DNA of 40,520 bases. Origin: Escherichia phage phiYIO1-1. Shown here piece by piece: positions 32,695-35,889 of the stretch (positions are counted from its first letter, which is position 1; every line of letters starts with the position of its first letter). The DNA is taken from the sequence record PP079210. One strand, given 5' to 3'. The notes beneath the pieces are model-generated. The model made no database searches. It saw only the letters and a program-made list of their open reading frames with translations, and was not told the origin of the DNA. A program made the position numbers and the translations under genes.

Positions 32695-35600
32695 ATGTCC
32701 ACGATTACACAATTCCCTTCAGGAAACACTCAGTACAGGATTGAGTTCGACTACCTAGCCAGAACGTTTGTTGTTGTTACGCTGGTGAATAGCTCTAACC
32801 CTACCCTGAACCGTGTACTGGAAGTTGGTCGAGATTATCGATTCCTTAACCCAACGATGATTGAGATGTTGGTTGACCAATCAGGTTTCGACATCGTTCG
32901 TATTCACCGTCAGACTGGAACTGACTTAGTGGTAGACTTCAGGAATGGCTCAGTGTTGACAGCTAGTGACCTGACCAATTCAGAGCTTCAGGCTATCCAT
33001 ATTGCAGAAGAAGGTCGAGACCAAACGGTTGACTTAGCGAAGGAATATGCCGATGCTGCTGGTAGCTCTGCTAGCAACGCTAAGGATAGCGAGGACGAAG
33101 CACGCCGAATCGCTGCGAGTATCAGGGAAGCTGGTCTAATTGGCTATATTACCCGTCGCTCCTTCGAGAAAGGCTACAACGTTACAACATGGAGCGAGGT
33201 CCTGCTATGGGAAGAGGATGGTGATTATTACCGCTGGGATGGTACGCTTCCAAAGAACGTTCCTGCTGGTTCAACTCCTGAAACTTCCGGTGGGATTGGA
33301 TTAGGTGCGTGGGTTAGTGTTGGTGATGCTGCTTTAAGAAGTCAGATTTCAAACCCGGAAGGGGCAATACTCTACCCTGAATTACATAGAGCACGCTGGC
33401 TTGATGAAAAAGATGTTCGTGGTTGGGGTGCTAAAGGAGATGGTGTCACTGATGATACAGCAGCGTTAACGAGCGCATTAAACGACACACCGGTTGGACA
33501 AAAGATTAATGGCAATGGGAAGACATATAAGGTCACATCCCTGCCTGACATTAGTCGCTTCATCAATACTCGTTTCGTTTATGAGCGCATTCCCGGACAA
33601 CCTCTTTATTATGCCTCTGAAGAATTTGTTCAGGGTGAGCTGTTCAAAATAACGGACACCCCTTATTACAATGCGTGGCCTCAGGATAAAGCGTTCGTAT
33701 ATGAGAATGTGATATATGCGCCTTACATGGGTAGCGATCGTCATGGTGTTAGTCGTCTGCATGTATCATGGGTTAAGTCTGGTGATGATGGTCAAACATG
33801 GTCTACTCCAGAGTGGTTAACTGATCTGCATCCAGATTACCCTACAGTGAACTATCATTGCATGAGTATGGGTGTATGTCGCAACCGTCTGTTTGCCATG
33901 ATTGAAACACGTACTTTAGCCAATAACGCATTAACCAATTGTGCATTGTGGGATCGACCCATGTCTCGTAGCCTGCATCTTACTGGTGGTATCACTAAAG
34001 CTGCAAATCAGCGATATGCAACAATACATGTACCAGACCACGGACTATTCGTGGGTGATTTTGTTAACTTCTCTAATTCTGCGGTAACAGGTGTATCCGG
34101 TGATATGACTGTTGCAACCGTAATAGATAAGGACAACTTCACGGTTCTTACACCCAACCAGCAGACTTCAGATTTGAATAACGCTGGGAAGAATTGGCAC
34201 ATGGGTACTTCTTTCCATAAGTCTCCATGGCGTAAGACAGATCTTGGTCTAATCCCTCGTGTCACAGAGGTGCATAGCTTTGCTACTATTGATAACAATG
34301 GCTTTGTTATGGGCTATCATCAAGGTGATGTAGCTCCACGAGAAGTTGGGCTTTTCTACTTCCCTGATGCTTTCAATAGCCCATCTAATTATGTTCGTCG
34401 TCAGATACCATCTGAGTATGAACCAGATGCGTCAGAGCCGTGCATCAAGTACTATGACGGTGTATTATACCTTATCACTCGTGGCACTCGTGGGGATAGA
34501 CTAGGTAGCTCTTTGCATCGTAGTAGAGACATAGGTCAGACTTGGGAGTCACTGAGATTTCCACATAATGTGCATCATACTACATTACCTTTTGCTAAAG
34601 TAGGGGATGACCTTATTATGTTTGGTTCAGAACGTGCAGAAAATGAATGGGAAGCAGGTGCACCAGATGATCGTTACAAGGCATCTTATCCTCGCACCTT
34701 CTATGCACGCTTGAATGTAAACAATTGGAATGCAGATGATATTGAATGGGTTAACATCACTGATCAGATTTATCAGGGCGGAATAGTTAACTCAGGTGTA
34801 GGTGTTGGTTCGGTAGTTGTGAAGGATAATTACATCTACTACATGTTTGGTGGAGAGGACCATTTTAACCCATGGACATATGGAGATAACTCAGCGAGGG
34901 ATCCATTCAAATCAGATGGTCATCCCTCAGATTTGTATTGCTACAGAATGAAGATTGGCCCAAGCAATCATGTTTCCCGTGATTTCAGGTATGGTGCTGT
35001 ACCTAACAGAGCTGTTCCCGTGTTTTTTGATACGAATGGGATTCGCACTGTTCCTGCGCCAATGGAATTTACAGGGGATTTGGGGTTAGGTCATGTGACC
35101 ATTAGAGCCAGCACCAGTAGTAACATTCGCTCTGAAGTTTTAATGGAAGGTGAATATGGGTTTATCGGGAAATCTATACCGACTGATAACCCGGCAGGGC
35201 AGCGCACCATATTTTGCGGAGGCGACAGTACCAGTTCTTCTTCTGGTGCACAGATTACGCTTTATGGTGCAAATAACACCGACTCAAGGCGAATAGTTTA
35301 CAATGGTGCTGAGCATCTGTTCCAGTCTGCTGACGTTAAGCCTTATAACGATAACGTCACTGCGCTTGGTGGGCCTAGAAACCGTTTCACCACTGCATAC
35401 CTCGGAAGTAACCCTATTGTTACTTCTAACGGGGAGAAGAAAACAGAGCCGGTAGTTTTTGATGATGCTTTCCTGGATGCCTGGGGTGACGTTCACTACA
35501 TCATGTACCAGTGGTTAGATGCTGTTCAACTGAAAGGCAATGATGCTCGTATACACTTCGGGGTTATTGCTCAGCAAATTCGTGATGTATTCATCGCACA

Positions 35601-35889
35601 TGGTCTGATGGATGAAAACAGTACGAATTGTCGTTATGCTGTTCTGTGCTATGACAAGTATCCACGGATGACCGATACGGTATTTTCGCACAATGAAATC
35701 GTTGAACACACTGACGAGGAGGGTAATGTCACTACTACGGAAGAACCTGTGTACACCGAGGTGGTTATTCACGAAGAGGGTGAGGAGTGGGGTGTTCGGC
35801 CTGACGGAATTTTCTTTGCTGAAGCAGCTTATCAGAGAAGAAAACTGGAAAGAATCGAAGCCAGACTTTCTGCTCTTGAACAGAAGTAA
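32695..35889 (+). CDS. Gene 17 tailspike: T7-like N-terminal adaptor + endosialidase-like body + C-terminal intramolecular chaperone-like domain
   Basis: 1064 aa. The N-terminal ~150 aa (IEFDYLARTFVVVTL...DFRNGSVLTASDL...QAIHIAEEGRD) match the T7 gp17 adaptor domain. The remainder is unlike the T7 fibre and, from memory, matches the phage K1F endosialidase (also 1064 aa as recalled). The C-terminal ~150 aa (GDVHYIMYQWLDAVQLKGNDARIHFGVIAQQI...) resemble the self-cleaving chaperone domain of endosialidases. Confidence 0.85.
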   Translation: MSTITQFPSGNTQYRIEFDYLARTFVVVTLVNSSNPTLNRVLEVGRDYRFLNPTMIEMLVDQSGFDIVRIHRQTGTDLVVDFRNGSVLTASDLTNSELQAIHIAEEGRDQTVDLAKEYADAAGSSASNAKDSEDEARRIAASIREAGLIGYITRRSFEKGYNVTTWSEVLLWEEDGDYYRWDGTLPKNVPAGSTPETSGGIGLGAWVSVGDAALRSQISNPEGAILYPELHRARWLDEKDVRGWGAKGDGVTDDTAALTSALNDTPVGQKINGNGKTYKVTSLPDISRFINTRFVYERIPGQPLYYASEEFVQGELFKITDTPYYNAWPQDKAFVYENVIYAPYMGSDRHGVSRLHVSWVKSGDDGQTWSTPEWLTDLHPDYPTVNYHCMSMGVCRNRLFAMIETRTLANNALTNCALWDRPMSRSLHLTGGITKAANQRYATIHVPDHGLFVGDFVNFSNSAVTGVSGDMTVATVIDKDNFTVLTPNQQTSDLNNAGKNWHMGTSFHKSPWRKTDLGLIPRVTEVHSFATIDNNGFVMGYHQGDVAPREVGLFYFPDAFNSPSNYVRRQIPSEYEPDASEPCIKYYDGVLYLITRGTRGDRLGSSLHRSRDIGQTWESLRFPHNVHHTTLPFAKVGDDLIMFGSERAENEWEAGAPDDRYKASYPRTFYARLNVNNWNADDIEWVNITDQIYQGGIVNSGVGVGSVVVKDNYIYYMFGGEDHFNPWTYGDNSARDPFKSDGHPSDLYCYRMKIGPSNHVSRDFRYGAVPNRAVPVFFDTNGIRTVPAPMEFTGDLGLGHVTIRASTSSNIRSEVLMEGEYGFIGKSIPTDNPAGQRTIFCGGDSTSSSSGAQITLYGANNTDSRRIVYNGAEHLFQSADVKPYNDNVTALGGPRNRFTTAYLGSNPIVTSNGEKKTEPVVFDDAFLDAWGDVHYIMYQWLDAVQLKGNDARIHFGVIAQQIRDVFIAHGLMDENSTNCRYAVLCYDKYPRMTDTVFSHNEIVEHTDEEGNVTTTEEPVYTEVVIHEEGEEWGVRPDGIFFAEAAYQRRKLERIEARLSALEQK

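Follow-up and report, generated by a model that had tools for sequence, protein, structure and literature searches.

The endosialidase tailspike of Escherichia coli phage K1F, gp17 or endoNF (an endo-N-acetylneuraminidase), has been crystallised, biochemically dissected and deep-mutationally scanned. H350, E581, R596 and R647, together with R549, are the key catalytic residues of endoNF (PMC12632334), and a Ser911-Lys916 dyad has been described, with N912 and G956 reported as essential (PMC3742443). The K1F protein, a mosaic of T7-type adaptor, endosialidase and chaperone, is the textbook case of how a receptor-binding module, exchanged horizontally, changes the host range. Stummeyer 2006, in the summary given by PMC6966330, concluded that the specificity of K1 phages came with the horizontal acquisition of the endosialidase, and the mosaicism and acquisition of these enzymes are treated in PMC6872550 and PMC6966330. 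Here we describe gene 17 of Escherichia phage phiYIO1-1 (sequence record PP079210), analysed within the whole 40,520-nucleotide (nt) stretch of DNA, which we call the window. A preliminary description of this DNA had placed a mosaic tailspike at 33150-35889, with a T7-type adaptor, an endosialidase-like body and a self-cleaving chaperone-like C-terminus. Our analysis demonstrates the sequence identity of the gene, its domain set, its conserved residues, a promoter-like element, its composition and its homology breakpoints.

A single plus-strand open reading frame (ORF) at 32695-35889, with 1064 codons plus a stop, occupies the region and corresponds to gene 17, the endosialidase tailspike precursor, in the ORF listing; the interval 33150-35889 covers its last five-sixths, codon 152 up to and including the stop codon. 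Across all 3195 nt the gene has 97.9% identity to K1F gene 17, and it is 98.5% identical, again over its full length, to that of vB_EcoP_F. At the protein level it is 97.8% identical to K1F gp17, with 23 of 1064 residues differing. At least 80% of gene 17 is covered in 30 phage records. Similarity extends over much of the window, with positions 1-25000 covered to 92-95% at 94-97% identity by the Kayfunaviruses vB_EcoP_F, SR04, phiHAO1-1 and others, and positions 30197-36524 being 97.2% identical to K1F. The gene order of the T7 group is also kept, with the gp16 ORF (28724-32629) followed by gene 17 and then by a T7-family holin (17.5; 36023-36217). Given this identity to K1F and other Kayfunaviruses, the window is, judged by nucleotide similarity, the genome of a K1F-like phage of the genus Kayfunavirus, and its gene 17 is an allele of endoNF. 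Taking the explanation of its domains, its residues and its origin as a whole, we regard the assignment of gene 17 to the K1F endosialidase (endoNF, CAZy GH58) as very nearly certain. The tailspike is the published K1F case itself, already known and without new biology.

The domain architecture of the encoded protein carries this assignment. A Pfam search with curated cut-offs returned seven domains, all of them above those cut-offs and all encoded on the plus strand. Residues 1-150 (32695-33144) form a T7 gp17-type N-terminal adaptor, which is predicted to anchor the trimer to the tail. This part scores 57.8 bits with Phage_T7_tail (PF03906, residues 10-114; cut-off 25.2), shows 40% identity to T7 gp17 itself over residues 6-113 and finds the structures 7BOZ (9e-18), 8DSP and 8E4G in the PDB. 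It is followed by a Tail_spike_N domain of the TSP1/Gp66 type (PF18668, residues 156-211, 68.7 bits; 33160-33327), which matches 4OJ5, 5W6H, 6NW9 and 9OCC and is found in hundreds of Salmonella, Escherichia and Ackermannviridae tailspikes. The Tail_spike_N domain ends in a GAWVSVGDA-LRSQ hinge, a motif common to gene 17 and to the tail proteins of phages IME207 and YX22. The N-terminal head is made of two modules, a T7-type anchor and Tail_spike_N, the latter being part of the conserved Kayfunavirus section. The plan of adaptor, body and chaperone set out in the preliminary description holds for all the parts that it named, but it had missed this second module.

The body of the protein matches four endosialidase models in their canonical order, each profile being covered essentially whole, as in GH58 enzymes of the K1F endoNF type. 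The endosialidase N-terminal extension (End_N_terminal, PF12218, residues 246-312, 129.6 bits; 33430-33630) coincides with the start of the crystallised fragment, 1V0E and 3GVL beginning at residue 245/246. The catalytic GH58 beta-propeller (End_beta_propel, PF12217, residues 313-754, 735.2 bits; 33631-34956) contains H350, E581, R596 and R647, and inserted into it is the polysialic-acid-binding beta-barrel (End_beta_barrel, PF12195, residues 424-506, 161.2 bits; 33964-34212). The stalk, a triple beta-helix/beta-prism with a further polysialic-acid binding site, follows at residues 757-910 (End_tail_spike, PF12219, 260 bits; 34963-35424). Finally, residues 911-1064 (35425-35886) form the C-terminal intramolecular chaperone, which would cut itself off between Thr910 and Ser911 and which scores 36.7 bits with Peptidase_S74 (PF13884, residues 914-971; cut-off 22). 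The T7-type N-terminus, the endosialidase body and the self-cleaving C-terminus, each of which had been recognised by eye, were therefore all recovered, with both the endosialidase and the S74 profiles matched above their curated cut-offs.

Comparison with solved structures gave the same picture. Residues 246-910 match the K1F endosialidase structures 1V0E/1V0F, 3GVJ, 3GVK, 3GVL and 3JU4 at E = 0, the substitutions relative to 1V0E and 3GVL being merely scattered over this part, and residues 790-1064 match the stalk-plus-chaperone structure 3GW6 at 7e-184. At about 98% identity, solved structures span residues 1-264 (9VVR), 246-910 and 790-1064.

The catalytic residues H350, E581, R596 and R647 were read directly in gene 17 and are unchanged with respect to K1F, and R549 is not among the 23 differences, so that the set of endoNF catalytic residues is present as in GH58. 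The self-cleavage dyad, Ser911 and Lys916, was likewise read directly, in the sequence IVT-S911-NGEK-K916. N912 and G956 are identical to K1F, as is the rest of the chaperone domain with the sole exception of R915K. The 3GW6 construct has Ala at position 911 where gene 17 has Ser, which fits a non-cleaving mutant made for crystallisation. The mat_peptide annotation of the K1F record AM084414 divides the precursor into gp17* (residues 2-910) and gp17-CTD (residues 911-1064); mapped to the window, these mature peptides correspond to a spike at 32698-35424 and a chaperone at 35425-35886.

The differences from K1F are unevenly distributed, with 12 of the 23 amino acid substitutions falling within residues 735-895 (binomial p = 4e-5) and 37 of the 68 nucleotide differences within gene-17 nt 2101-2700 (window 34795-35380), which encode the end of the propeller and the stalk. 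The ten Kayfunavirus copies of gene 17 that we compared do not vary in length (3195 nt). Their differences from the window allele are patchy along the gene, and the nearest allele shifts from segment to segment between vB_EcoP_F, K1F, HAO1-1 and Esher7. With 154 informative sites, the four-gamete test failed for 32% of the site pairs, and in a PHI-type test neighbouring sites are less incompatible (0.230) than in shuffled data (0.319 ± 0.010; 0 of 1000 permutations). These results indicate intragenic recombination among the ten alleles.

Could gp17 of phiYIO1-1 be a functionally altered derivative, one that binds without cleaving or that addresses another capsule? The 23 substitutions, 12 of them clustered at residues 735-895 around the stalk binding region, speak for such a change. 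However, the catalytic and self-cleavage residues are all unchanged, and most of the substitutions are common to phages isolated on K1 strains. The four residues that are private to the window among the ten alleles (G127S, K410N, K735R and K751R) are either conservative changes or located away from the active site. We consider a changed function extremely improbable and keep to an endosialidase of the K1F type.

The variation does lend itself to a suggestion that we make only tentatively and with rather low confidence. The beta-helix stalk of K1F is a mutationally plastic region, described as a 'tuning knob' (PMC12632334). The Tail_spike_N domain and its hinge (codons 203-220) could serve as a common recombination linker by which receptor-binding cassettes move between the tailspikes of podo-, sipho- and myoviruses. 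Separately, a patch in the stalk of this allele might tune processivity or the discrimination between K1 strains. The stalk patch might comprise I838T, E844D, G845S, T849S, T850S and S895R, with O-acetylated capsules as an example of what might be discriminated. Alleles within the K1 cassette may be reshuffled continually, with substitutions concentrated beside the polysialic-acid site of the stalk. Both ideas extend published notions, namely the modular exchange of receptor-binding proteins and the stalk as a 'tuning knob' (PMC12632334).

To place the junction of the mosaic we used phages that share only one side of it. Two Kayfunaviruses with other tailspike bodies, IMEP24 of E. coli and CHRF_30030 of Salmonella Typhi, have gene-17 nt 1-645 in common with the window at 96% and nt 1-633 at 95%, respectively, and nothing after. 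Counted per 30-nt bin, their identity is 83-100% up to nt 630, 53% at nt 631-660 and random beyond. Similarly, the 843-residue tailspike of PDB 9VVR is almost identical over residues 1 to about 245 and has a different body and a related S74-type C-terminus. From the other side, the tail protein of IME207 (Shuimuvirus) has 94.6% DNA identity and that of YX22 (Ackermannviridae) 81%, starting at nt 524 and nt 565, respectively, and running to the end; the N-terminus is unrelated in both. The head-sharing and the body-sharing homologies overlap at codons about 175-215, that is, at Tail_spike_N and the GAWVSVGDA-LRSQ motif, and this overlap places the junction with the Kayfunavirus backbone near 33325-33345 (codon 211-217), where homology to the Kayfunaviruses with other bodies ends. 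The module had previously been taken to start at 33150 (codon 152), about 180-190 nt upstream of this homology junction, and its body to measure about 900 residues; it is instead about 820-850 residues long (from residue 212 or 246 to 1064).

The base composition of the gene also stands out. The guanine-plus-cytosine (GC) content is 45.4% for gene 17 and 45.0% for 33150-35889, against 50.3% for the window outside gene 17. Only 1.4% of sliding windows of equal length are as low in GC, all of them overlapping gene 17, with the minimum beginning at 33321, and the lowest-GC stretches of 2.7 kb and 3.2 kb in the window both lie inside the gene. In non-overlapping 100-nt windows, the mean GC is 45.1% inside gene 17 and 50.3% outside (Mann-Whitney p = 7e-9). 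Within the gene GC ranges over 37-54% in 100-nt windows and 41.8-47.2% in 500-nt windows; the hand counts of 38-47% that had led to the body being called AT-richer than the rest fit small windows of this kind, and the GC profile across the gene is indeed not flat.

The dip lies almost entirely at third codon positions. Relative to the 23 other genes of the window with at least 140 codons, whose GC at third codon positions (GC3) is 0.554 ± 0.041, GC3 is 0.387 in gene 17 (z = -4.1) and 0.365 over residues 246-910 (z = -4.6), and GC at the first and second codon positions (GC1 and GC2) is unremarkable (z = -0.7 and +0.9). The adaptor, residues 1-150, has a GC3 of 0.46. Since only GC3 deviates, the dip is a synonymous-site signature, and amino acid composition as its cause can be excluded. 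Fitting a single GC3 change-point over genes 16 and 17 placed it at codon 175 of gene 17, with 0.526 before and 0.368 after (likelihood ratio 56). Low GC is also seen in a gp13-like gene (25401-25871, 44.6% GC) and a gene 6.5-like gene (17205-17477, 45.8% GC). Unlike gene 17, these two have a normal GC3 (0.51 and 0.54, respectively), so their low GC comes from amino acid content.

The composition of the cassette travels with it. In three phage families its GC is 45-47% and its GC3 0.37-0.43, in backgrounds of 50% GC (this window), 45.5% (the flanks in IME207) and 42% (the flanks in YX22). In YX22 its GC is above that of its neighbours (GC3 0.427 vs 0.347). This steady composition, together with the sharp breakpoints, supports a horizontal transfer of the cassette. 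On the homology breakpoints, we therefore assign codons 1 to about 215 to the Kayfunavirus backbone and the remainder to a mobile endosialidase-plus-chaperone cassette of lower synonymous-site GC, which unrelated phage families also carry.

Several caveats attach to this account of gene 17 and its origin. The GC3 change-point is loosely placed, its likelihood hardly varying between codon 1 and about codon 215; for this reason we dropped composition as a guide to the exact junction and took the junction from the homology breakpoints. The conserved N-terminal part is itself somewhat low (GC3 0.445 for residues 1-211), and the unrelated bodies of IMEP24 and CHRF_30030 are likewise low (0.305 and 0.35), which means that composition alone fails to show the endosialidase body as the incoming one. 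Low GC3 thus marks the exchangeable distal part of the tailspike across Kayfunavirus generally. A different kind of caveat comes from the deposited hosts. Among the phages whose full-length gene reaches at least 95% identity, several are listed with K1 hosts (O18ac:K1:H7, 'K1 LU_100' and UTI89), which lends K1 specificity indirect support. For two records with 97% identical full-length genes, MZ311862.1 and PV615262.1, the stated hosts lack a K1 capsule (E. coli K-12 MG1655 and Acinetobacter baumannii). Unless these labels, which we could not check, are mistaken, the two hosts call for an explanation. Overall, we found caveats of this sort and no evidence contradicting the K1F-endosialidase explanation.

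The compositional caveats could be turned into an explanation of their own, in which low GC arises in place by selection or mutation bias on tailspike genes, for example through codon usage that slows the translation and folding of trimeric beta-structure, and not by transfer. The conserved residues 1-211 are also below the genome GC3 (0.445 vs 0.554), and because the unrelated bodies of IMEP24 and CHRF_30030 are as low as that of gene 17, low GC3 would follow genome position and not solely the endosialidase module. Nevertheless, the presence of the module at 94.6% identity in a Shuimuvirus and at 81% in a member of the Ackermannviridae, with sharp breakpoints, demonstrates transfer whatever the composition, and in YX22 the module has kept its own composition in GC-poorer surroundings. 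Bias in place is therefore a very unlikely substitute for transfer. The earlier proposal of horizontal acquisition is supported, with the qualification that low GC3 is not peculiar to the endosialidase body.

Transfer of the cassette still leaves its direction to be weighed, as composition and breakpoints do not tell which body came first in Kayfunavirus. The exchange could have run the other way, with the endosialidase body as the older resident and other bodies swapped in by the sisters (IMEP24, the Salmonella Typhi phages and 9VVR). The 30 records, the uniform 3195-nt copies and the freely recombining alleles would fit a long residence, and every body examined is compositionally foreign, so that none is marked as the original. 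The published view, Stummeyer 2006 in the summary given by PMC6966330, is that a T7-like progenitor acquired the endosialidase. We regard the reversed order as unlikely, and the identity and action of gene 17 would be unchanged either way. Our preferred reading, then, is that the tailspike is a K1F endosialidase whose distal cassette was acquired horizontally.

Upstream of gene 17, an 18-nt plus-strand element (CTAAACTATCACTATAGG, 32626-32643) overlaps the stop codon of gene 16 and is a putative phage-RNA-polymerase promoter. It belongs to a 10-copy direct-repeat family (families D1 and D2) with the invariant core ACTATCAC-T-TAGG, whose ten sites are spread over window 1910-39972. By analogy, these are presumably the phage-RNA-polymerase promoters of this T7-group phage. 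A Shine-Dalgarno sequence, AGGAGG, was read directly on the plus strand at 32685-32690, 4 nt before the ATG at 32695. Over 32400-36300, a scan for sigma-70 promoters found 5 promoter-like sites compared with 6.8 in shuffles, which is not above chance, and a scan of the same interval for intrinsic terminators found 2 terminator-like sites compared with 2.8 in shuffles, with none convincing after gene 17. An Rfam scan of both strands of this interval returned no family at threshold. ORFs of 50-96 codons on the reverse strand or out of frame within gene 17 were set aside as mechanical by-products, given that a single frame specifies a protein with 98% identity to the crystallised one.

A mechanism can be proposed on the model of K1F. 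Gene 17 would be transcribed from its own phage promoter at 32626-32643. The 1064-residue precursor would trimerise under the guidance of its C-terminal chaperone domain (residues 911-1064) and, after the trimer has folded, the Ser911-Lys916 dyad would cut the chain before Ser911 and so free the chaperone domain. The mature trimer (residues 2-910) is predicted to dock on the tail via the T7 gp17-type adaptor (residues 1 to about 150), with Tail_spike_N next in line. The six-bladed propeller (H350, E581, R596 and R647) would cleave the alpha-2,8-polysialic acid of the E. coli K1 capsule, and additional binding sites in the beta-barrel and the stalk would hold the polymer. In this way the phage would bore through the capsule, and its host range would be limited to K1 strains. 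Trimerisation, self-cleavage, tail attachment, endo-cleavage and the restriction to K1 are steps that we infer from the work on K1F, that is, from the K1F structures and from PMC12632334, PMC3742443, PMC6872550 and PMC6966330.

Nuclease-like genes were observed downstream of gene 17. Between genes 18 and 18.5, a plus-strand ORF of 91 codons (36534-36809) encodes a protein of the Endonuclease VII family (PF02945, 4e-17). K1F is without a counterpart, its homology to the window stopping at 36524 and resuming at 36809, and IMEP24 has a 276-nt 'hypothetical' ORF in the same place; the segment at 36525-36808 looks like a mobile nuclease insertion. A second plus-strand ORF (37260-37646, 128 codons), between the Rz-like 18.5 and the terminase gene 19, encodes an HNH_3 endonuclease with a weak AP2-like tail. 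This insert (37258-37665) stands where K1F has about 53 bp that include the first codons of gene 19. Identity to K1F is 90.6% over the 734 nt after the insert compared with 97-98% elsewhere, a pattern compatible with co-conversion around the site of a homing endonuclease. An HNH gene occupies the same 18.5/19 junction in CHRF_30030. Just downstream of gene 19 lies a third nuclease-like ORF (39359-39940, plus strand, 193 codons, with a listed TTG start), which matches HNH_3 at 1.5e-14.

At the genome ends, tandem 14-nt repeats (CCTACACCTACAGT) lie at 222-336 near the left end and a related copy at 40441-40489 near the right end. The window begins with TCTCACAG, as does the left end of T7. No alignable repeat is common to the first and the last 1000 nt, so any terminal repeat can be present in the window in one copy at most.

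The main value of this analysis is a correct annotation, which identifies the phage as a Kayfunavirus predicted to be specific for the K1 capsule. This bears on phage typing and therapy against E. coli K1 (neonatal-meningitis, urinary-tract and avian-pathogenic strains) and on the use of the phage as a source of endosialidase to detect or remove polysialic acid. The small confirmatory additions are the exact junction, the GC dip at synonymous sites, the steady composition of the module in three families and the intragenic recombination of alleles.

Among known systems, K1F gp17 (PDB 1V0E, 3GVJ-L, 3JU4 and 3GW6) is the closest, with the same length of 1064 residues, the same position after gene 16, the same seven domains and the same catalytic and cleavage residues. 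It differs by 23 substitutions, 12 of them in residues 735-895, and the window genome has extra nuclease genes that are absent from K1F. T7 gp17 shares the N-terminal adaptor (40%, residues 6-113), the gene position and a phage promoter of its own, whereas T7 continues into a coiled-coil fibre with a lipopolysaccharide-binding tip and the window protein into Tail_spike_N, an enzyme body and a cleaved chaperone (PMC6872550). The GH58 propeller, barrel and stalk are also found in EndoN92 of phi92 (PDB 4HIZ, which matches residues 246-908 at E = 5e-237) and in gp47 of K1E/K1-5; K1-5 is reported to be 72% and phi92 53% identical (PMC6872550). Attachment differs from that of gene 17: in K1-5 and K1E it depends on gp37, a separate adaptor protein, together with a short docking peptide, and phi92, a myovirus, has a multivalent baseplate (PMC6872550). 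The tailspikes of IME207 and YX22 have the endosialidase-plus-chaperone cassette in common with gene 17 from about residue 150-190 to the C-terminus (protein identity 92.8% and 82.3%, respectively) and differ in their unrelated N-terminal attachment parts, which are suited to other virion types. Conversely, IMEP24, CHRF_30030 and 9VVR share the head of adaptor and Tail_spike_N (nt 1 to about 640 at 95-96%; residues 1 to about 245 for 9VVR) but carry unrelated receptor-binding bodies, in proteins of 727, 671 and 843 residues, respectively. S74 domains elsewhere, in a neck appendage (PDB 3GUD, which matches residues 915-1014 at 7e-13), in T5 pb1 and in eukaryotic MYRF, resemble the chaperone of gene 17 in their Ser-Lys dyad and in trimerisation followed by self-removal (PMC3742443, PMC4690869). 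Their passenger domains are unrelated, and the extra loop of the K1F type, T977-H1026, is mostly absent from them (PMC3742443).

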